Below are positions 606 through 12,599 of a stretch of 62,614 nucleotides of DNA, one piece after another. Where the stretch lies: assembly GCA_016781485.1 (NCBI GenBank), contig JADDQH010000005.1, positions 1 through 62,614 of the forward strand. The letters run 5' to 3'. How positions within the stretch are numbered: position 1 is the stretch's first letter; each line of letters begins with the position of its first letter. Position numbers and translations under genes: made by a program. The DNA comes from Chloroflexota bacterium (lineage in GTDB: Bacteria > Chloroflexota > Limnocylindria > Limnocylindrales > CSP1-4). Under the pieces are notes generated by a model, which was given only the letters and a program-made list of their open reading frames with translations, did not search any database and was not told the DNA's origin.

Positions 606-2726
606 CTAGGCGTTTCGCACGGAGGGCAGCAGAGCTGCCACCAGCCCGCTCGCAGCCGTGAGCACGCCGAAGCCCGCGATGACGAGCCCCACGGGGACGG
701 CCTCCGCTAGCACCCCCGAGATCGCCATGGCGCCCGTCATCGCGCCGAAGACGAGGCTCGAGCGGAACGAGACGACGCGGCCGATGAGGGGGATCGGGGT
801 CAATTCCGCGAACAGGGTCTGGCTCGGGATGACGTAGACGAGGTTCGCGACACCGACGATCGCCGCGGCGGCGAGCGCGACGAGGACGTTGTCGGTCAGG
901 CCGAGGAAGATCGTCGCGAACCCCATCACCACGAACCCCGCCACGACCAGCCGGCCCTTCCGGAGCTTCGCCCCCACGGCTCCGACCGCCACGCCCCCGA
1001 CCAGGTTCCCGAGCCCGATCGCCGTCTCGATCGCGGCGTAGTTCTGCGGATACGGGATCACGGCCGGGTCGAGCCACTCGCGGGCGTACACGACCGTGAG
1101 CGCGAGCGTGGAGCCGAGCGACATCTGCCCGAACGTGCTTACGAGCGTGTTCTGGAACAGCGGTGGCTGGCTCCGAAGGAACCGCCAGCCGTCGGCGAGC
1201 TCACCGAGGAAGGCGCGGACTGCGCCAGCGACCCTCGGCGCCGTCTCTCGCGCAACCGGGGGGATCGCCAGCCCCGCGATGAGGAGCGCGCTGACCAGGT
1301 AGCTCGCTGCGTCGACCCAGAACGCGATCGGGAGCGCGGCGCCGAGGAAGGCCACGAATAGGCCAGCCAGGGGATAGCCGGCGATGTCCGCCAGCGTCTC
1401 GCTCGTCCAGGTGGCGCTGTTCGCGGCGATCAGGTCTTCGGGCGCCACGATACGCGGCACGACAGCCGCCTTGGCTGGCCGAAAGAAGATGCTGACGGTA
1501 GTGACCGCGAACACGATGAGATAGACGAGGACGATGTTCGTCGCCGCCGCGGCGGGTAGCGCGAGCACCAGCACCGCACGCAGAAGGTCGGCCGCGACCA
1601 TCACGTGCTTCTGATCCCAGCGATCCACGAACGTTCCGGCGATCGGGCCCAGGAGGAGGTTCGGGAGGGTCGCGGCCAGGAACACGAGTCCCGTCAGCAG
1701 TGGCGAGCCTGTGAGGCCGTAGACGAGCACGCCGAGGGCGACCTGATGCAGTCGGTCCCCGAACAGGCTGATCGTCTGACCGAGCCAGAAGCTCGAGAAC
1801 CGCGCGTCGAGCGCCAATCGGACGAAGGGGTGCTGTTTCGCTGTGGCCGATGACGGAGCGACGAGGGTGCGCGCACGATCGGAGGCCGTCGACGTCGGTG
1901 ACGGGACGGTGCCGACGGGAGACGGAGACGCGCTGCGACCGACGGTCGGGACGACGGCGCTCGGGTCTGACGTGCCCGCGGGAAGGGCGATGGGAGCGTC
2001 CCCGGCCGAGACGGTCAGGGCGGTCGATGCCCTCGTCCCGCCCAGCAGGACGGGGCCGTCGAGCCCCACCGTCGGCTCCGGTTCCTCGATGTCGACGCCG
2101 GCCGCATCGGGGGGTACTCGGATCATTCCTTTTCTGCTCGAGCGACCGAACCGCGCCGACAGCGTCCGCGCGGATGGGGCTTCGCCGTACAGAAGCGTGC
2201 CGAATACGAATAGCCCGATGCCGGTGGAGAGGAAGACGTCGCCGACGCTCGCGACGTTCGGGACGAAGGGCAGCGGGACAGGGAGGATGTCGCCGAAGGG
2301 CCCCGCACGCAGGAGGAACTCGAGACCCAGCTGCTGCGGTAGCACGGCGTGGATCGCGGGGTCCAGTTCCGCGTCGTTGAGGTGCGCGAAACCGAGCGCG
2401 GGCTCCCAGACCGGCATCCGGCCACCGTTGACGGTGAACGCGAAGCCGTTCGCAGCCACGCCGAGGGCTGCGACGAGGAGACCGGGCCGGTCGCGATTCA
2501 GCCACAGCGCGAACGCGAGGAGTCCGAATGCAAGCGCAAACAGGGGTACCCGGAGCGCGTCCACGAGAGGGACGCCGGAACGGATCCCGTACTCGGTACC
2601 GAAACGAAGCAGGAGCGCGGCGAAGATCGCCCAGACCCAGCGGAGGCGTGCGTTCGCGAGATGGTCGAGCCGGCCGCCGAGCAGCAGCCCGCCGACGAGC
2701 CCGATGACGAGCCCGATCAGTAGCAC
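606..2726 (-). CDS. DUF5317-like membrane domain fused in frame to an MFS (EntS/MFS_3-like) transporter
   Basis: 706-aa ORF. The N-terminal ~185 aa are multi-TM and DUF5317-like. A ~110-aa Pro/Ser/Thr/Ala linker follows. The rest is a typical MFS_3 sequence (FWLGQTISLFGDRLHQVAL..., 12 TM-like segments). Confidence 0.75.
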   Translation of the reverse strand: MLLIGLVIGLVGGLLLGGRLDHLANARLRWVWAIFAALLLRFGTEYGIRSGVPLVDALRVPLFALAFGLLAFALWLNRDRPGLLVAALGVAANGFAFTVNGGRMPVWEPALGFAHLNDAELDPAIHAVLPQQLGLEFLLRAGPFGDILPVPLPFVPNVASVGDVFLSTGIGLFVFGTLLYGEAPSARTLSARFGRSSRKGMIRVPPDAAGVDIEEPEPTVGLDGPVLLGGTRASTALTVSAGDAPIALPAGTSDPSAVVPTVGRSASPSPVGTVPSPTSTASDRARTLVAPSSATAKQHPFVRLALDARFSSFWLGQTISLFGDRLHQVALGVLVYGLTGSPLLTGLVFLAATLPNLLLGPIAGTFVDRWDQKHVMVAADLLRAVLVLALPAAAATNIVLVYLIVFAVTTVSIFFRPAKAAVVPRIVAPEDLIAANSATWTSETLADIAGYPLAGLFVAFLGAALPIAFWVDAASYLVSALLIAGLAIPPVARETAPRVAGAVRAFLGELADGWRFLRSQPPLFQNTLVSTFGQMSLGSTLALTVVYAREWLDPAVIPYPQNYAAIETAIGLGNLVGGVAVGAVGAKLRKGRLVVAGFVVMGFATIFLGLTDNVLVALAAAAIVGVANLVYVIPSQTLFAELTPIPLIGRVVSFRSSLVFGAMTGAMAISGVLAEAVPVGLVIAGFGVLTAASGLVAALLPSVRNA

Positions 2727-2847
2727 GAGTGCTCACCCAAGTTCAGCATCCCCCCAGCCCGACCGAGTCGCCTTCGCAGCCCCGCGGGCCACGTAGATCG
2801 TGCGAGCTTAAGTCGGCGGCGCCTGTCGCCGCCGCCGGCGACCGGTG

Positions 2848-4206
2848 CTAGTGGCTCTTTGTGCCAAGGCCCGGCTCGCGTCCCGCCTGGCCGGCGCGGC
2901 TGGCCGCGACCTGGCCGAGCATCGGCACGACGCGCTCTTCGGTCGGTCGGCCTGGGTCCTGGATCCCTGCCGCCCATCGCGTCTTGCTGAACGCATCGAC
3001 GGCGACCGGGTCGAACTGGATCCCTGTGTATCGGCGGATCTCTGCCATCGCCTGCGCCGGCGTGAGCGGACTCATCCGATAGGGGCGGGCAGCGGTCATC
3101 GCCTCGAAGGCGTCGGCCACGTGGAGGATCCGTGCGAGCTTTGGGATCTCCTCTCCAACGAGGTGATCCGGGTACCCCGATCCGTTGTACCACTCATGGT
3201 GATGCCGGATGATCGGGAGCTCGGGCGCGAGCTTCTGGACCGGCTTGATGATCTCCTCGCCCTTGACCGGGTGCTGGTTCATCAGGATCCGCTCTTCCTT
3301 GGTCAGCCTGTCCTGCTTCAGGAGGACGGCGTCCGGCACGCCGATCTTTCCGATGTCGTGCAGCAGGCCGCCCCACTCGAGCGCCTCCAGCTCCGACTCG
3401 GAACAGCGCATCTGCCGCCCGATGTCGACGGCGATCCGCTGGACCCGCTCGCTGTGCCCGCTCGTGAACTTGTCCTTCGCGTCAACGGCTGACGCGAGGC
3501 TCCGCACGGTCTGCGTGAACATGTCCCGCAGCTCGACGACGCGCTGGTAAGCGGCGCGCGTCGTCAGAAGCGGCAGCCCAAACAGCAGCGCGGCCCACCA
3601 ATCCACGGTCGCGTACACGTGCGCAACGAGCCACGCAAGGGGAGCAAGAGCGAGCGTCCCTGCGGCCACTCCTGAAGTCGACCAGCTTGCGATGTAGACC
3701 GACCGGAAGGATCTTTCCTGGCGAAGAGCAAGCGCGGCTGCGGCCATTGTGCTGTTAGCGAGGAAGAAGAGCGTGCCCGCCGCCGTGGCGGCGATTAGCG
3801 AGCGCGGCGTCGCCTCGAACGCTCCTGCGCCGGCGAGCTGTTGATATAGCGCGCCGGCGGAGACAGCGGGCAGGATTGCAAGCGCGTGGTTATACGCGGT
3901 GCCGTACCACGGAACGCGTCCGCGTACTTCTCGGATCTCTGTTGTCCCAAGTGCAGCGACGAGCCCGGCGGCTAGCGGGCCGGCCAGGAATGAACACGCG
4001 AGGATTGGACCGGTCGCGACCGCCAAGAGAACGCCGGTCGGCAACCGGACCGGAGCGTGGGAGGCAAGCAGCGCGACGACCGTCCAAAACACAAGGTCGC
4101 GGATCCGGAAATCCGCTGGCGGAGGAAACAGCAACGCCGCCACAGCCAGCGAAATCGCACTGGCTGTGACGGCGAGGCCAATCAGAGTCTTGAGTGCCGG
4201 TTTCAC
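2848..4206 (-). CDS. membrane-bound HD-GYP domain phosphodiesterase
   Basis: Multi-TM N-terminal half. C-terminal half carries the HD-GYP motifs HSERV, GGLLHDIGKIGVPD and HHEWYNGSGYPD. Confidence 0.9.
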   Translation of the reverse strand: MKPALKTLIGLAVTASAISLAVAALLFPPPADFRIRDLVFWTVVALLASHAPVRLPTGVLLAVATGPILACSFLAGPLAAGLVAALGTTEIREVRGRVPWYGTAYNHALAILPAVSAGALYQQLAGAGAFEATPRSLIAATAAGTLFFLANSTMAAAALALRQERSFRSVYIASWSTSGVAAGTLALAPLAWLVAHVYATVDWWAALLFGLPLLTTRAAYQRVVELRDMFTQTVRSLASAVDAKDKFTSGHSERVQRIAVDIGRQMRCSESELEALEWGGLLHDIGKIGVPDAVLLKQDRLTKEERILMNQHPVKGEEIIKPVQKLAPELPIIRHHHEWYNGSGYPDHLVGEEIPKLARILHVADAFEAMTAARPYRMSPLTPAQAMAEIRRYTGIQFDPVAVDAFSKTRWAAGIQDPGRPTEERVVPMLGQVAASRAGQAGREPGLGTKSH

Positions 4207-7600: not shown

Positions 7601-8285
7601 CGAGCGAGTCGAGGACCCGTTGACGCGAAGGATTCGCGAGTGCCATGTGGCCGAGCAGTGCGGAGGTGGACTCGCCGAAGTCCGGCTCGACCTCCCGGAC
7701 CGCAGCGAGCAGGTAGTGGACGAACGTCGTCCAGTCCCGGTCGTTCGAGTCGAGCTTGTACCAGAGGCAGCGAACATATCTCCGCCGCGAGAAGTCGGCC
7801 AGGAGCGTCGTCTTCCCATACCCTGCCTCGGCGGTGACGAGTGTGAGTCGACGCCGGACGTTCTCGCGGAGCCAATCGAGGAGCCGCTCGCGCGACAGCG
7901 TCGAGTCCCGGACAGGAGTGGGTGTGACCTTGGCGCGGGATACCGGATGCGGGTCGAGGGAGCGTCCGTGGAGGAGCGGGGCTGACCCAGGCGAGGTCGT
8001 CCCCGGTCCCACGGGCACCGCCACTCGCATGTCGTCCGCCACCTGCCGCTCTCGTCCCTGAGCCGCCGTCGACGGGGCGGGTGGTCTGGACGATACGGTG
8101 GTACGCCTGTCGCTCGACTCGGGACGCTTCACGACCCCATTTTCCCCGTTACCTCTCAGCTGCGACTTATCTAGGACCGCGCGCAGCCGACCGCGAACTC
8201 TGGCCGAGAAGAGCCGCGTCGGCGCCCTGCACCTTCCAACGCCGCCTCGCGGCGCAACGTCGATGCAGAGCGCGGGGTGGGGCAC
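4653..8285 (-). CDS. large STAND-type ATPase / TPR-like repeats / C-terminal SARP winged-helix + BTAD transcriptional regulator
   Basis: Walker A AEAGYGKTTLL and Walker B LLILDDFH. Long helical repeat region. C-terminus has an OmpR/SARP-type wHTH (RKAASLLMYLI...LWPD...LRREI) and a BTAD (EYEEWALGWRDTL...GVEPPTFEDL). The true start may be internal (GTG 8132 or ATG 8030). Confidence 0.85.
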   Translation of the reverse strand: MPHPALCIDVAPRGGVGRCRAPTRLFSARVRGRLRAVLDKSQLRGNGENGVVKRPESSDRRTTVSSRPPAPSTAAQGRERQVADDMRVAVPVGPGTTSPGSAPLLHGRSLDPHPVSRAKVTPTPVRDSTLSRERLLDWLRENVRRRLTLVTAEAGYGKTTLLADFSRRRYVRCLWYKLDSNDRDWTTFVHYLLAAVREVEPDFGESTSALLGHMALANPSRQRVLDSLVAELDALRREPTLLILDDFHLVDDTAEVREIVGRLVREAPESLTLLIMARRRPALPLGRLAAQGELAELTASDLRFSVQEIERLFGDIYGQSLDGDLLAQVDARTEGWAASLQLLHSSIRGRSAHEIRAFVRSLSGAQGVLYDFLAEEVVAELRPEMQRALIHASLLEHVVPEHLIAIFAPGREPRTRGEIVRLMEEAERLGLLARGGEGSTALRFHPLLRDFLQRQLHQTVSEEELRAIHGRVARAAESDDWLAACHHYIEADEPREAMRVLADSVVQAIGSGRWKAAAEVLERLRGIDLEPAAAVILSWREVDQGHPRRALALLDGLDSAYPSPTEKGLIRAARMHAFFWSGHREGLLAAAREIVSDAETAPVLRELAEAHLLLTDDDTSWSRTRSQRLQQLAVRQATTGLNLAAGISLHNAMIVEWAQANYNVAIHLGNQALARFDLVNHVPRESYATHSTLALCWTELGRAEEATANANAAAAAGVRDADAVLECAYLALVTGEIDRAVELYEFAQRLEQSDIGSTAVAQLARSLIALSTGDTASVDATLCSVQSWSNSDLGSRSAVFTWRALAALAVGDRQRALSLANDGLELARIHNARRWEALLRLVVAGSTGCQEELRRGVEVAAGLGHLGLLEAAPALVPMLELLDPLPAPLEDSIERWPLRWLPLLRKQLQAGESDAGTVAARLLERYGTQNDIPLLRAYERRFLKRRQTGSLARSLARRISPRLHINDLGRSCLSVGARSVPISRVRRKAASLLMYLITRPSTNAAREQVLDQLWPDLEPSAAANSLNQTLYFLRREIDPWYDDDVSVDYVRFESEMLWLEPELVDIASVSFLSAATRAASAPPSEVDGALEVIRSYSGRFAPEFEYEEWALGWRDTLHAQYLHLVHTTQLHLIDAMRLAEATQVAQTTLQIDPDATDVERDLIWLYSTAGARSAAAEQYEHYAMVHREQLGVEPPTFEDLTRRPIERRFE

Positions 8286-8306
8286 GGCCCAGGGGGCGCG
8301 GGACGC

Positions 8307-8337
8307 TTGACATTGGAGCCGCTCTAGGGTTTAGCGT
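8307..8337 (+). promoter_or_regulatory. MerR-type promoter: TTGACA, 19-bp spacer with imperfect dyad, TAGCGT
   Basis: TTGACA at 8307-8312 and TAGCGT at 8332-8337. The spacer contains the dyad ACATTGGAGC-C-GCTCTAGGGT (7/10 positions complementary). The -10 ends 7 nt before the merR ATG, which implies a leaderless mRNA. Confidence 0.5.
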
Positions 8338-8344
8338 TGCGGCC

Positions 8345-8746
8345 ATGCGCATCGGGACACTCGCCGAACGACTCCGCACCACCCCTCACGCGATCCGCTT
8401 CTACGAACGCCGAGGTCTTCTCCCTGTGCCCCAGCGCGCTGACAACCGGTACCGCTCGTACACCGAGCAGGACGCCGAGAGGCTACGGCTGCTTGTCGGG
8501 CTTCGGCAGCTCGACCTCCCGCTCGAACAGGCGGCGGCCCTCGCGGGTATGTGCACTGCTGGCCACTGTGAGCAGGTGTCGGAGGAACTCCGGGAAGCCA
8601 TCTCGCAGAAACGGGAGGAGTTGAGGCGTCGGATCGATGAGTTGCAGTTTCTCGACCGGCGGCTCGCGCATCTCGCCGGCCAACTCGGGTCTGGGGAGAC
8701 GCCCCAGGCCGTCATCACGCTGGGAAAGGAGGAACGCGATGTGTGA
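8345..8746 (+). CDS. MerR family transcriptional regulator
   Basis: MRIGTLAERLRTTPHAIRFYERRGLLP...NRYRSYTEQDAERLRLL is a typical MerR HTH, followed by a coiled-coil dimerisation helix. A Cys/His cluster MCTAGHC sits at the start of that helix. I place the start at ATG 8345; the track ORF extends upstream to 8081. Confidence 0.9.
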   Translation: MRIGTLAERLRTTPHAIRFYERRGLLPVPQRADNRYRSYTEQDAERLRLLVGLRQLDLPLEQAAALAGMCTAGHCEQVSEELREAISQKREELRRRIDELQFLDRRLAHLAGQLGSGETPQAVITLGKEERDV

Positions 8747-8819
8747 CTGCTCGTGCGGTCAGTGCTGCGGGTGCGGCGGCTGCCGCTGCGGCTGCGCCTG
8801 CCGCGGTCACGCTAGGTGA
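8739..8819 (+). CDS. 26-aa cysteine-rich peptide (metallothionein-like candidate): MCDCSCGQCCGCGGCRCGCACRGHAR
   Basis: ATG 8739 overlaps the last merR codons. A perfect AGGAGG (8727-8732) lies 6 nt upstream. 21/25 third codon positions are G/C in this frame, against about 52% in the competing 8743 frame over the same stretch. 10 Cys in 26 aa. Confidence 0.55.
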   Translation: MCDCSCGQCCGCGGCRCGCACRGHAR

Positions 8820-8826
8820 CGCTCAC

Positions 8827-9045
8827 TTGACCATCCGGTTCTTGGACGAAGGCGCGCGCAAGGATGACGACGAGCCGCTCGTCGAGTACGTCGCCGGGCC
8901 GCTCGCGGATCGCCGCGAGCGGCTTGCGCGACCACCGCACGAGATCAGCGTGCCTGAGGCCGCGGGCATCTACCGGCGATCCCTGAAGTGTGCCGAAGAC
9001 GGCGCGCTCCGCTATGTGTGGCAGGAGTGGCCACCGGCCGACTGA
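8827..9045 (+). CDS. hypothetical small protein (uncertain; competes with antisense ORF 8812-9078)
   Basis: TTG 8827 is preceded by AGGTGA. Third-position G/C is about 81% downstream of 8830, but the antisense frame scores the same. No family recognised. Confidence 0.25.
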   Translation: MTIRFLDEGARKDDDEPLVEYVAGPLADRRERLARPPHEISVPEAAGIYRRSLKCAEDGALRYVWQEWPPAD

Positions 9046-9212
9046 CGCGCCGGGAAGATGGGTGACCACGAAGATCACGTGCCGGGATCCGACCCGCGTC
9101 GAGGTCTAGGAACATCTCCCGACGCTGGCTGAGCGGAACTGATCGACCCGGATGACGAGCAGACGAACGTTGCGCTCGAATCGTCTGCTCCACTTCAGGC
9201 GGTTTCCCCCGA

Positions 9213-10058
9213 TCAGTGCTGGCCCACGGTCCCCTGCTCGCGTAGCCGTCGGTCGGCCCACGCGAAGACCGCTCTTCCGAGAGGCAGCAGGATCGCCGCG
9301 AGCATGGCCAGAGCGGCGTACTGGAGCACGGGATCCAGCAGCGGGCGCGCGCCGAGTCCGGTGACGCGGAGCAGGTCGATCGCGTAGGTCGTCGGGAGCG
9401 CGAACGAAACGAGCTTGAGGAAGCCTGGCAGGACGGTGATCGGGAACATGACGCCCGACGCCGCGGCGAACAGTGCATCCGACGCATCGACCCAGAAGAC
9501 GGGTTCCTTGATCAGCAGCACGGCCGACGAGATCAGGAAGGCGACGCCCAGGACCGCCAGCGCCGCGAGCAGGAACGCCGGCACCGCGAGGACGATCGCG
9601 GGAGAGAGTCGCACTCCGAAGAGGGCCACGGCGATCGCGAGCATGAGCACGATCCCGATCGCGGACAGCACCAGGGCGCTGAGTCCCCGCCCGAGCACGA
9701 GCGTCTCGCGCGCGACCGGCGTGAGCCACGCGGGCTCGAGTGTGGCCTGGTCCATCTCGCGCTTGAACGAGTAGCCGATCCCCCAGAACGCGGCGCCGAC
9801 GAGGTACGCCACGAGCATCCCGAGGATCAGGAACCCTGCCACGTCGCCCGTGCCGGCGGTCTCCTCCAGGCCCACCGCACGTCCGCCCACCGCGAATGTC
9901 GCGCCAAGCAGCAGGCTCGGGATCACGAATTGGTAGATCGGCTGGCCGATCTGGTTGAACACCTCGAGCGGGTAGCGCGTCAGGATCCGCAGATCCTTGC
10001 GGGTGATCGCGACGATCGCCCGCGCCTCCAGCGCCCATGCACCAGTTCGTCCCGCCAT
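9213..10058 (-). CDS. ABC-2 type transporter permease
   Basis: 281 aa from ATG 10058, six TM-like segments, ABC-2 architecture. The track ORF is over-extended to 10664. Confidence 0.85.
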   Translation of the reverse strand: MAGRTGAWALEARAIVAITRKDLRILTRYPLEVFNQIGQPIYQFVIPSLLLGATFAVGGRAVGLEETAGTGDVAGFLILGMLVAYLVGAAFWGIGYSFKREMDQATLEPAWLTPVARETLVLGRGLSALVLSAIGIVLMLAIAVALFGVRLSPAIVLAVPAFLLAALAVLGVAFLISSAVLLIKEPVFWVDASDALFAAASGVMFPITVLPGFLKLVSFALPTTYAIDLLRVTGLGARPLLDPVLQYAALAMLAAILLPLGRAVFAWADRRLREQGTVGQH

Positions 10059-10069
10059 CTTGTCCGTCG

Positions 10070-10903
10070 TCAGTACTGCGCGAGCCGGCCGCCGCGACGC
10101 GCGTACGCTTCGGCACGGCGGAACGCGACCGCAGCCAGCGCGCACAGGACGACGCCGGCGCCCAGCAGGATCGCGAGATCGGGCACCAGGTCGACCAGGT
10201 CGGCGCCCGTGAGGAGCACCGCGCGGAGGTCCGCGATGATGTAGGTCGGGGGAAGGGCAAGCGCGGCCGATCGCGCCAGATCGGGGAGGATCACGATGGG
10301 GAACGTGATCCCGCACAGGACCGTGAAGACCCCGCGCACGACCTGGATCGGACCGACGACCTCGCCGACGCGAAGCACGAGGGTCGCGAACAGCGCCCCC
10401 ATCCCGTACAGCGCGGGTACCGCGAGAAGGATCACCACGGCCGCCCGCAGGACCGCGGCCGGCTCCACGACGAGCCCGAACCCGAACCGAAGAGCGATCC
10501 CCACGACCACGTACATCCACAGTGCCGGGACGAGATGCGCGACTGCGGGGCCGAACAGGATCCCGATTCGTGATGCAGGCGTGAGGAACAGCGCCTCGAG
10601 GGAGCCACGGACCTGCTCGGTCCGCAGCAGGGTCCCTGGTCCCCAGAGCACGATGCTCAACCACATGTACATCGACCAGCCGATGAACAGGAAGCCGGCG
10701 ATCTCGTTCGTGCCGCTCCGCTCGGCGAACGCGTCGATCGCCCGCTGGTCACCGCCGGAGTAGCCGCGTGCCTGGAGCACGTACATCGCTGGAAGCACGA
10801 TCGGCCAGAACAGCAGCCCGAGCCCGAACGTCGGGTAGCGCCGCAGCTGGCGCCACTCGCGGACAGCCGCGGCGCCGAACGCGCGCAGCTCGAGGAGAAG
10901 CAT
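10070..10903 (-). CDS. ABC-2 type transporter permease
   Basis: 277-aa polytopic protein immediately downstream of the ATPase gene. ABC-2 permease-like. Confidence 0.85.
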   Translation of the reverse strand: MLLLELRAFGAAAVREWRQLRRYPTFGLGLLFWPIVLPAMYVLQARGYSGGDQRAIDAFAERSGTNEIAGFLFIGWSMYMWLSIVLWGPGTLLRTEQVRGSLEALFLTPASRIGILFGPAVAHLVPALWMYVVVGIALRFGFGLVVEPAAVLRAAVVILLAVPALYGMGALFATLVLRVGEVVGPIQVVRGVFTVLCGITFPIVILPDLARSAALALPPTYIIADLRAVLLTGADLVDLVPDLAILLGAGVVLCALAAVAFRRAEAYARRGGRLAQY

Positions 10904-10912
10904 GCTTTCCGC

Positions 10913-11938
10913 CTACTCGCGGAGTGCGCGGCCGGTCAGGGCCAGGAACACGTCCTCGAGCGTCACCGGCACGACTTCGACATGCTTGATGGTCGCCCCA
11001 GCCGCCCTCGCGGCGTCGAACGCCCGCGGCACGAAGTCGCGAGCGGACACAGTGTGCATCGTCAGGTGCAGCAGGCCGTCGGCCCGCTCCTGGCGGGCGA
11101 CCTGCGCGTTCTCGGATAGCCGGCTTACGACGCCGTCGGCCTCCGCCGCGATCTCGAGCCGAACGACCTCCTCGGCCTGGATCGTCCGCTTCAGGGCGGT
11201 GGGGGTATCGAGGGCGACGATCCGGCCATGGTCGATGATCGCGACGCGGTCGCACAGCTGGTCCGCCTCCTCCATGTAGTGTGTCGTGAGGAGCACTGTC
11301 TTGCCCTCCGAGCGAAGCTCCAGCACCCGCTCCCGCATGTCTCTTGCCGCCTGTGGGTCGAGGCCGACCGTCGGCTCGTCGAGGAGGAGGAGCGGCGGAT
11401 CGGGCAGGAGCGCGCGAGCGAGCACGAGCCGCTGGCGCATCCCCATCGAGTAGCGCTCGACGTAATCGTCCGCGCGATCCGTGAGTTTGACGGCGTCGAG
11501 CACCGACTCGATCCGCTCTCTGGTGCGCCGTGGCGGCAGGTGATAGAGGGCGGCGAAGTACTCCAGGTTCTCGCGGGCCGTCAGCTTCCAGTAGAGGCTT
11601 CGCTCGCCGCTGAGCACCGCCCCGAAGCGTCGGCGTACCTCTCGCGGCTGCTCGCGAACGTCGATGCCGAGCACGCGGGCCGCACCCGAGGTGGGGAGGA
11701 GGAGCGTGGCGAGGATCCGCATCGTCGTCGTCTTGCCGGCACCGTTCGGACCGAGCATCCCGAAGATCTCGCCCTGCTCGACGCGCAGCTCGATCCCGTC
11801 CACCGCGACGAACCGCTCGCGGTGGTCCGGCTCGCGCCGGAGCCGCTGGATCCACGTCCGGCGACCGCGCTCGAACACCTTGGTCAGTGCGCGCGCGTCC
11901 ACGGCAGGGACGTCTCGGGGAAGCGTCGTGGTGGCCAT
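10913..11938 (-). CDS. ABC transporter ATP-binding protein (DrrA/ABC-2 exporter type)
   Basis: Walker A GPNGAGKTT, signature YSMGMRQRL, Walker B LLLLDEPTVGLD. C-terminal extension typical of DrrA-like ATPases. Confidence 0.95.
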   Translation of the reverse strand: MATTTLPRDVPAVDARALTKVFERGRRTWIQRLRREPDHRERFVAVDGIELRVEQGEIFGMLGPNGAGKTTTMRILATLLLPTSGAARVLGIDVREQPREVRRRFGAVLSGERSLYWKLTARENLEYFAALYHLPPRRTRERIESVLDAVKLTDRADDYVERYSMGMRQRLVLARALLPDPPLLLLDEPTVGLDPQAARDMRERVLELRSEGKTVLLTTHYMEEADQLCDRVAIIDHGRIVALDTPTALKRTIQAEEVVRLEIAAEADGVVSRLSENAQVARQERADGLLHLTMHTVSARDFVPRAFDAARAAGATIKHVEVVPVTLEDVFLALTGRALRE

Positions 11939-11946
11939 GGCGGCGG

Positions 11947-12022
11947 AGTATACTCAGGAAAGAAATGTTGCGCAAGGTTTCTTTAGGAAGAGTCCGACCG
12001 ACAGGACCGACAGGACCGACAG
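11947..12022. promoter_or_regulatory. divergent control region: palindromic -10 AGTATACT, 26-bp near-palindrome, 3x 9-bp tandem repeat
   Basis: AGTATACT at 11947-11954 reads TATACT on both strands. AAAGAAA-tg-TTGCGCAA-gg-TTTCTTT at 11959-11984 is 22/26 palindromic. GACCGACAG occurs 3 times at 11996-12022. Confidence 0.5.
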
Positions 12023-12026
12023 GACC

Positions 12027-12599
12027 GTGACCGAGCTTCTCGAGCTCCGCGACGCCCGCCAGATGCGTGCACTCGCGCACCCCCTGCGCCTCCGTATCCT
12101 CGCGTTCCTCCAGTCGGAGGGACCCTCCACGGCGACGCGACTGGCGGAGACGTTCGGAGAAAGCGTGGCGTCGCTCAGCTACCACCTCCGGCAACTGGCG
12201 AGGCACGGCTACGTGGAGGAGGCGCTCGACCTCGGGCGCAATCGGAAAGAGCGTCCCTGGCGGGCGCGGGCGGCGGGCGAGCGCATCGACCGTTCGTCGC
12301 TCGACTCCGTCCAGCGAAGGCCGGCGGCAGCAGCGCTCATCGCGCAGCTTGTCGAGGAGTCAGCGCAGCTCTACTTCGAGTTCCTCGACCGGCTGGACGA
12401 GTACCCGTCGGAGTGGCGGCGTGCGGCGATCTACCAGGGAAGGCGGATCCAGGTAACGCCCGGCGAGGTGGACGAGATCCGGGAGCGACTGCAGGAGCTG
12501 TTCGCGCCGTACGAGCGCGAGAGTCGGAGGACCCCTCCCGCCGGCGCCGAACTCGTCCACCTGTCGATCCAGGCGGTCCCGGTCTCGCGAGGCCGTTGA
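12027..12599 (+). CDS. ArsR-family winged-helix transcriptional regulator
   Basis: ALAHPLRLRILAFLQSEGPSTATRLAETFGESVASLSYHLRQLARHGYV is an ArsR-type HTH. Divergent from the ABC-2 exporter operon. GTG 12027 chosen as the start (uncertain). Confidence 0.8.
   Translation: MTELLELRDARQMRALAHPLRLRILAFLQSEGPSTATRLAETFGESVASLSYHLRQLARHGYVEEALDLGRNRKERPWRARAAGERIDRSSLDSVQRRPAAAALIAQLVEESAQLYFEFLDRLDEYPSEWRRAAIYQGRRIQVTPGEVDEIRERLQELFAPYERESRRTPPAGAELVHLSIQAVPVSRGR

Follow-up and report, generated by a model that had tools for sequence, protein, structure and literature searches.

This paper describes a conserved gene for a very short cysteine-rich peptide, overlooked by gene callers, which sits at the end of a merR-type regulatory gene in soil Chloroflexota. 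The locus lies on a 62,614-nucleotide (nt) stretch of Chloroflexota contig JADDQH010000005.1 (assembly GCA_016781485.1, forward strand), which we call the window. It consists of a MerR-family regulator of 133 amino acids (aa) with its own promoter and, overlapping the regulator's stop codon, a micro-open reading frame (micro-ORF) for a 26-aa peptide. The micro-ORF is a real coding sequence, held under purifying selection and tied to this clade of MerR proteins, and the pairing of peptide and regulator is conserved in soil Chloroflexota. We favor the view, with a probability of roughly 0.55, that the two genes form a self-contained, autoregulated sensing and sequestration operon in which the peptide acts as a mini-metallothionein. 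An earlier note on this DNA, made from its letters alone, had placed a promoter, merR, a Shine-Dalgarno sequence and the peptide ORF here, and a re-reading of positions 8100-9100 found all of these coordinates to be correct. The features of the locus are as follows.

8307..8337, + strand: merR promoter/operator, with -35 element TTGACA (8307-8312), 19-nt spacer (8313-8331) and -10 element TAGCGT (8332-8337)
8345..8746, + strand: merR, encoding a 133-aa CueR-like MerR-family regulator (Pfam MerR_1, MerR and MerR-DNA-bind)
8727..8732, + strand: Shine-Dalgarno sequence AGGAGG for the peptide gene, within conserved MerR G-K-E codons and 6 nt from the ATG at 8739
8739..8819, + strand: unannotated micro-gene for the 26-aa peptide MCDCSCGQCCGCGGCRCGCACRGHAR, identified by its invariant Cys pattern and codon-position evidence
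8827..9045, + strand: orfX, encoding a 72-aa protein, with a TTG start 8 nt past the peptide stop; conserved in a related locus (L117)
8890..8932, + strand: GC-rich hairpin of 19 bp with one bulge, within orfX and 71 nt past the peptide stop

The peptide has 10 cysteines among its 26 residues (38%), one histidine and no phenylalanine, tyrosine or tryptophan, and its reading frame overlaps the merR stop by 8 nt (ATGTGTGA). With its low mass, its many cysteines in CxC, CC and CxxC arrangements and its lack of aromatic residues, it has the composition of a metallothionein. It is the sole open stretch in the window with at least eight cysteines per 26 aa, and no such stretch arose in 20 second-order Markov simulations of the window. 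The arrangement of a MerR gene followed by a Cys-rich micro-ORF is more than chance.

For the comparison with relatives, we collected 425 MerR homologs at E<=1e-10, mostly of 131-138 aa, from soil metagenomes and Chloroflexota metagenome-assembled genomes (MAGs). We then compared 25 genome and 80 metagenome loci, plus several contigs found by exact protein look-up. Loci with a MerR at least 53% identical, for which the 3' end and downstream DNA are present, are referred to as close; there are 39 of them, all from Chloroflexota MAGs or soil metagenomes. A Cys-rich coding stretch stands at the merR stop in 37 of the 39. It is found in none of about 65 distant MerR loci (<=44% identity), whose MerR proteins carry ordinary C-terminal Cys loops. 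Of the two exceptions among the close loci, one has a rearranged 3' end (L019), and the other has a different, CC...CxxC tail (L038). The latter (L038 1869-2336) encodes a 53%-identical MerR of the same clade with four cysteines in its C-terminal tail (PCC...CTVC), and has neither a micro-ORF nor the conserved promoter.

Two types of peptide can be distinguished, of which the earlier note had seen one. Type A, the dominant form of the family, occurs at about 30 loci, is 17-22 aa long and follows the pattern RCDDCCCxxHCCGCG, as in MPLRCDDCCCEKHCCGCGTK. Type B, the type found in the window, is 26 aa long and follows the pattern MCDCxCGQCCGCxxCxCGCxCxxH; it is encoded as a separate peptide in the window and in L020, L117 and L118. 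The L117 peptide is MCDCSCGQCCGCGACGCGCACRGHAR, and the MerR encoded there is 80% identical to that of the window. Type B is also found fused in frame to the C-terminus of MerR, which the earlier note had not foreseen, at four loci (L013, L016, L018 and L021) and in four database proteins (P0121, P0123, P0124 and P0125). A profile search headed by the 40-aa fused tail against 5.8 billion predicted proteins returned a single match, the fused fragment P0121, and phmmer with P0121 against 1.84 billion representatives returned five proteins. On the MerR tree, type-B peptides are scattered, a type-B subclade being nested among type-A MerRs. We also observed a type-B peptide gene at L115 2609-2689 (+), encoding MCDCPCGQCCGCGACQCGCACSAHRK, which has the same gaaaggagg Shine-Dalgarno sequence and lies behind, and in frame with, a SnoaL-like ORF, merR being absent from this locus; the peptide gene can thus exist independently of the regulator.

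Patterns of substitution identify the reading frame that is under selection. In type B (6 sequences, 23 codons), the variable sites are distributed over the three codon positions as 7/7/22, and the ratio of synonymous to non-synonymous differences is 125:80 in the Cys frame against 27:185 and 25:177 in the other two. In type A (22 distinct sequences, 13 codons), the corresponding figures are 5/5/12, and 406:676 against 174:930 and 234:803. All 10 cysteines and the histidine are invariant in the six window-type sequences, as well as in L117, L118 and L115, while TGC and TGT codons alternate. Residues other than cysteine, namely His, Gly and Asp/Glu, are conserved together with the Cys spacing. 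The earlier note had itself proposed a comparison of synonymous-site patterns between the Cys frame and the overlapping frame from 8743 as a test of its claim, and both the codon positions and the synonymous to non-synonymous ratios come out in favor of the Cys frame.

Automatic gene callers see the locus differently. They annotate a 100-aa ORF at 8743-9045 in the window and omit the peptide gene, just as the earlier note had warned for a peptide this short. On that reading, the 100-aa ORF is the real gene, and the open Cys frame is a by-product of GC-rich, GCN-rich sequence. We find this scarcely credible. The G+C content at third codon positions (GC3) is 0.85 in the Cys frame against 0.52 over the first 28 codons of the 8743 frame, the same contrast that had been pointed out before. 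The Ala-rich N-terminal part of the 100-aa product is not conserved, whereas the Cys frame is; within the product, conservation in L117 is limited to the last 72 aa. The full 100-aa ORF found no homolog in the 5.8-billion-protein search, and tblastn searches with it and with an antisense 88-aa ORF against all fetched loci gave no matches. The annotated ORF is a chimera, in which codons 1-28 are an out-of-frame shadow of the peptide gene and the last 72 codons are orfX.

The signals for translation of the peptide are conserved as well. Most related loci have an AAGGAGG-like Shine-Dalgarno sequence about 5-9 nt upstream of the peptide start. Since this sequence lies inside the conserved G-K-E codons of MerR, those codons do double duty. 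The peptide start lies at most 16 nt ahead of the merR stop and at the latest directly behind it, so that the overlap or abutment described for the window recurs among its relatives. The frame of the peptide gene relative to merR is offset by +1 in most loci and by +2 in six (L008, L009, L011, L020, L035 and L036). Programmed frameshifting into a MerR-peptide fusion was considered and is ruled out by this variation and by the presence at each locus of a separate Shine-Dalgarno sequence and start codon; the variable offset points to independent initiation or to translational coupling. Among the fused genes, three of four retain the internal Shine-Dalgarno sequence and ATG, so both a long and a short product are possible.

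A frame so dense in Cys codons might also serve as a cysteine-responsive attenuator, in which ribosomes pausing on Cys codons when Cys-tRNA is low would control downstream genes; in the window, orfX begins only 8 nt past it. We give this idea very little credence. Most loci have no downstream gene on the same strand, but a hairpin or a convergent gene comes next; in many type-A loci a clean GC-rich hairpin lies within 10 nt of the peptide stop. Exact Cys spacing and non-Cys residues are conserved, and in-frame fusion to MerR implies a functional polypeptide. A parallel is provided by the polycysteine short ORFs of mycobacteria, each of which is the first, leaderless ORF of a cysteine-metabolism operon and acts through ribosome pausing (bioRxiv 10.1101/834739). 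They resemble the present ORF in being unannotated, Cys-dense and found in GC-rich bacteria on transcripts with leaderless starts. Unlike them, the present ORF does not precede a cysteine-metabolism operon: it comes second, behind the regulator, is driven by a Shine-Dalgarno sequence, is usually the last in its operon and encodes a product that can be fused to MerR.

The promoter upstream of merR has the layout expected for activation by a MerR-family protein, namely an over-long spacer of 19-20 bp that holds a dyad operator. The layout TTGAC[ACT]-19 nt-TAnnnT is common to the window and 36 related loci, as is the leaderless start that the earlier note had proposed together with it. In the window, the dyad TTGGAGC c GCTCTAG is centered at 8320 within the 19-nt spacer. 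Across loci, the dyad consensus is AC.TTnGAGC n GCTCnAA.GT, with its center at spacer position 8, and the two arms change in a compensatory fashion. Of 33 unique promoters, 31 have complementary bases at positions 10 and 18, namely G-C (22), C-G (7) or T-A (2), and positions 9 and 19 make use of A-T, C-G and G-C pairs. A consensus of promoter and operator built from the relatives has one match in the whole 62.6-kb window, at the merR site, and none in 100 shuffles. A general consensus promoter scan, whose spacer range of 16-18 nt is too short for this layout, found no promoter, and a terminator scan found no terminator, there being no T-runs.

Among unique promoters, the -10 element lies 6 nt (24 promoters), 7 nt (6) or 9 nt (1) from the start codon; the distance is 7 nt in the window. 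Because the -10 element is so close to the merR ATG, we predict a leaderless merR mRNA, transcribed from a MerR-type promoter. The Escherichia coli copA promoter bound by CueR, TTGACC-TTCCCCTTGCTGGAAGGTT-TAACCT (PMC11298882), has the same 31-nt architecture of -35 element, 19-bp spacer with dyad, and -10 element. The window promoter is identical to it at 19 of 31 positions, and the relatives reach 23 of 31 (L016). The use of the promoter differs: CueR drives an efflux ATPase, whereas the present MerR is predicted to drive its own leaderless gene and the peptide gene.

The regulator itself has the standard organization of its family, with an N-terminal winged helix-turn-helix (HTH; PF13411/PF00376) followed by a long dimerization helix, and it matches the Pfam entries MerR_1 (7.9e-18), MerR (1.8e-13) and MerR-DNA-bind (1.1e-05). 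The Pfam scan found no TipAS antibiotic-binding domain in it. An AlphaFold2 (AF2) monomer model, with a mean predicted local distance difference test (pLDDT) score of 84.8, has helices at residues 3-9, 14-22, 41-54, 60-71 (helix 4) and 75-115 (helix 5). CueR is the nearest relative of known structure both by sequence and by fold. It is the top sequence match in the PDB (7e-14), followed by Bacillus MerR, CadR and PbrR, and the best fold matches of the AF2 model are Ag(I)- and Cu(I)-CueR, with CadR and PbrR next; HiNmlR, a MerR regulator without a sensor domain, is also listed. The NCBIfam models for metal sensors, ZntR among them, score 58-72 bits: CadR-PbrR gives 71.6 (cut-off 151.45), MerR 66.2 and the CueR model TIGR02044 64.7 (cut-off 147.4). 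All scores fall under the equivalog cut-offs, which indicates a distinct subfamily.

In CueR, a serine in place of cysteine at the start of the dimerization helix (S77) marks selectivity for +1 ions, and the metal-ligand cysteines C112 and C120 lie in a loop after that helix. The serine is present here as S79, which is invariant and aligned to S77 in the HMMER alignment. The loop cysteines are gone, there being no cysteine after residue 75 in the window MerR or in 22 aligned homologs. When the sequence alignment is extended by hand without gaps, L114 and A122 come to stand at the positions of C112 and C120, so the loop length is apparently kept. The earlier note had pointed to this loss and to a CxxxHC motif in its place. 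The absence of a canonical loop holds, and so does the CxxxxC spacing (C70-T-A-G-H-C75), with C70, C75, S79 and H109 invariant in 23 sequences. The histidine singled out within the motif, H74, is not conserved; the conserved one is H109. In the model, C70 is at the end of helix 4, C75 in the first turn of the dimerization helix and H109 about 1.5 turns before the end of that helix. In CueR, S77 is opposite the loop of the partner monomer. By analogy, and judging from conservation and helix positions in the monomer model, C70, C75 and H109 could form an inter-subunit sensing site.

An invariant CxxxxC at the hinge might instead point to a sensor like NmlR or AdhR, one that uses thiols to detect oxidants or electrophiles. 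C70 and C75 would then do the sensing, with the peptide serving as a sacrificial buffer of thiols that binds no metal. The appearance of HiNmlR among the fold matches and a weak match to the NCBIfam NmlR model (7.5e-11) are in keeping with this. We think it unlikely, as the NmlR match scores 42 bits against 58-72 for the metal-sensing models (CadR/PbrR, MerR, CueR and ZntR), CueR leads both the sequence and the fold searches, copper genes adjoin the loci of relatives, and the operator resembles that of copA.

The gene pair has no fixed companions. In the six contexts that were examined, the genes upstream differ from locus to locus, and the next gene downstream is often convergent; lacking conserved neighbors, the merR-peptide pair is a self-contained operon. 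The surroundings in the window had left open, in the earlier note, a role as a secreted or modified peptide, for example as the precursor of a ribosomally synthesized and post-translationally modified peptide (RiPP) or other Cys-rich natural product exported by the neighboring ABC-2 transporter. The surroundings do invite that thought, since in the window both an ABC-2 exporter and a large regulator of BTAD type lie close to the gene for this short, Cys-rich peptide. The comparison has not borne it out, and we regard it as very improbable. The same six contexts share no modifying enzyme, protease or exporter as a neighbor, and the AAA/BTAD regulator, which is divergent in the window, is lineage-specific. 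The peptide has no leader/core architecture and no signal peptide, and it can be fused to a cytoplasmic DNA-binding protein. The exporter is convergent to merR and has its own ArsR-type regulator, which makes it unlikely to be part of the merR module. This regulator (about 12000-12599, +; HTH_20 1.3e-13, HTH_5) is an ArsR-type HTH protein encoded divergently from the three-gene ABC-2 exporter operon (9213-11938, -).

Type-B and fused loci often have copper or other metal-related genes beside them: an HMA protein at L016, CopC and Caa3_CtaG at L020, and a multicopper oxidase with a TRASH protein at L021 and L013, the former also carrying a cation-efflux protein. These neighbors strengthen the proposal, already made in the earlier note, of a compact sensing and sequestration module, which remains the best-supported reading of the locus. 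In this operon, a CueR-like MerR dimer would sit on the dyad within the over-long 19-bp spacer of its own promoter. Binding of the inducer, for which a soft metal is the likeliest candidate and Cu(I) the probable one, would realign the -35 and -10 elements and give a leaderless merR-peptide mRNA, which in the window would run on into orfX. We suggest Cu(I) because of the CueR-like scaffold, the conserved serine, the operator and the copper neighbors in relatives. The regulator would be translated from its leaderless start and the peptide from the consensus Shine-Dalgarno sequence embedded in the last merR codons, a placement for which we expect the peptide to be made in excess. The peptide would then bind metal in thiolate clusters, lowering the amount of free inducer and damping the response. 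In lineages with an in-frame fusion, the products could be a long regulator with a tail as well as the free peptide. Four parts of this scheme are inferred: that the peptide binds metal, which inducer is sensed, that peptide exceeds regulator, and that the feedback loop operates.

Several points weigh against the mini-metallothionein proposal. Production of the peptide and its binding of metal are both predicted from sequence. Neither type of peptide matches any Pfam or NCBIfam entry at E values up to 1, including the metallothionein families and MymT. No copper genes adjoin the operon in the window, and they are mostly absent at type-A loci too. Translational coupling could equally yield a stoichiometry of about 1:1, which would suit a subunit more than a buffer acting in bulk. 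The candidate sensing site at C70, C75 and H109 is drawn from conservation and the helix positions of a monomer model, and a Met or Thr takes the place of H109 in the four fused MerRs that were examined, which have a His four residues further on. Moreover, fusions of MerR and peptide are also predicted by a model in which the peptide is a sensor domain.

That model deserves separate consideration. It holds that the Cys-rich peptide is the detached metal-binding module of the regulator, and that the metal-loaded peptide docks on MerR, perhaps bridging metal to C70/C75/H109, and is needed for activation. The loss of both canonical loop cysteines from a loop of apparently unchanged length is what one would expect of such a split sensor. 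The in-frame fusions listed above (four loci and four database proteins) are gene-fusion evidence for a physical or functional interaction, the overlap or abutment of the genes favors co-production, and the CC...CxxC tail of L038 is a different Cys tail on the same scaffold. For the fused forms, the Cys-cluster copper sensors of eukaryotic transcription factors such as Drosophila MTF-1 are a possible model: there, a short CxCxxCxC-type stretch attached to a DNA-binding protein is reported to assemble a polynuclear Cu(I) cluster by which copper is sensed (PMC2396432). The DNA-binding scaffold and the kingdom are unrelated, and a cluster of this kind in the fused MerRs would be hypothetical. On the other side, peptide type does not track the MerR phylogeny cleanly, a type-B peptide stands behind a non-MerR gene in L115, MerR retains an invariant Cys/Cys/His candidate site of its own, and the combination of a leaderless regulator with a consensus Shine-Dalgarno sequence behind it suggests that peptide is made in excess. 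We hold the split sensor to be a doubtful but real possibility. If true, it would mean that the sensing loop has been outsourced to a separately translated peptide of 17-26 aa, a two-component form of MerR sensing that has not been described previously.

Downstream of the peptide gene, the window has a further gene that the earlier note had not recognized. orfX and its counterpart in L117, the closest relative, share 60% aa identity with an in-frame indel, and their differences by codon position are 17/15/34. As the codons from the TTG at 8827 onward are conserved in L117, orfX is a real small gene following the peptide gene. It probably belongs to the operon as a third gene, in this lineage alone. 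It has no Pfam or NCBIfam matches, no homolog besides L117 in the 5.8-billion-protein search, and no counterpart in L118 or any other locus examined. The hairpin within it is exceptionally stable (-39.2 kcal/mol, z = -5.5), with a perfect 11-nt inverted repeat as its core. L117 does not conserve it, and it may be incidental or may serve as a terminator or attenuator that has no T-run. An Rfam scan of 8000-9400 gave two sub-threshold chance matches only, and there is no tRNA in the window.

Some further neighbors recur among relatives. In the type-B/fused clade, the conserved next gene, counted among the metal-related neighbors, encodes a thioredoxin-like DF-family (seleno)protein with a CPNH motif (NF049942, 7e-27); it lies directly downstream of the peptide gene or tail in L013, L016, L018, L020 and L021 and is absent from the window. 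Two loci (L022 3509-3649 and L032 1499-1639) have a 46-aa Cys-rich ORF about 50 nt past the type-A gene, with a sub-threshold match to MymT (NF052418, E 1.6e-4, 21.5 bits against a cut-off of 80), which adds to the copper context of the relatives. Upstream of its merR region the window has HD-domain and DUF5317-MFS genes (606-4206, -). Both are found again ahead of merR in a Chloroflexota MAG (L112, 1-2392), and the DUF5317-MFS gene recurs in a Joint Genome Institute (JGI) metagenome contig (L113, 1-986); this loose synteny suggests that the window belongs to a related Chloroflexota genome.

The operon combines elements that are familiar individually. MymT of Mycobacterium, controlled by a CsoR-type repressor, is 53 aa long, and the copper metallothionein of Neurospora crassa is 25-26 aa. 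Like the present peptides, both are tiny, have more than 25% cysteine in CxC and CC motifs and lack aromatic residues; neither has a detectable sequence relationship to them, and MymT is not under a MerR-type activator. CueR keeps the loop cysteines C112 and C120, in contrast to the MerR described here with its invariant C70, C75 and H109. In Pseudomonas aeruginosa, CadR activates zrd, a gene for a small Cys-rich protein likened by its authors to metallothionein (PMC12301328), so that metal sensor of the MerR family likewise has a small Cys-rich protein under its control. The differences are that the zrd gene stands at a locus of its own, that its zinc-ribbon product is predicted to have mononuclear sites, and that CadR has a normal Cys sensing site.

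The nearest parallel in regulatory logic is TipA of Streptomyces, a minimal autoregulated MerR-type system (PMC7762955). With TipAL and TipAS, likewise, one MerR-type promoter yields a regulator and a surplus of an inducer-sequestering polypeptide; the resemblance is one of logic only. The long and short tipA products come from one frame, as would those of the fused loci with an internal Shine-Dalgarno sequence and ATG, whereas in most loci, including the window, the peptide has an ORF of its own, which is in a different frame from merR and overlaps or adjoins it. TipA binds thiopeptides through its TipAS domain, which the present regulator lacks, its ligand presumably being a metal.

In the literature, we found no prior description of this peptide family or of a Cys-rich micro-ORF coupled to merR. 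A MerR activator and a metallothionein-like peptide are known kinds of molecule; what is new is the peptide family, the clade of CueR-like regulators without a Cys loop, and their coupling and fusion. The family shows that conserved Cys-rich peptides of 17-26 aa have been overlooked by gene callers, which in the window annotated a spurious overlapping frame in their place. With promoter, regulator and peptide gene in about 520 bp, the operon is also a possible compact part for biosensing or metal capture. The family is restricted to soil Chloroflexota, a largely uncultured group in which metal homeostasis has, to our knowledge, hardly been studied. Should metal binding be confirmed, no shorter gene-encoded metallothionein-like molecule would be known from bacteria. 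The regulator, of CueR type, has lost the canonical sensing cysteines, has gained a different invariant set of Cys, Cys and His, and is tied, physically or through translation, to a Cys cluster, which makes this family a tractable one for studying how new sensing sites evolve in MerR proteins.

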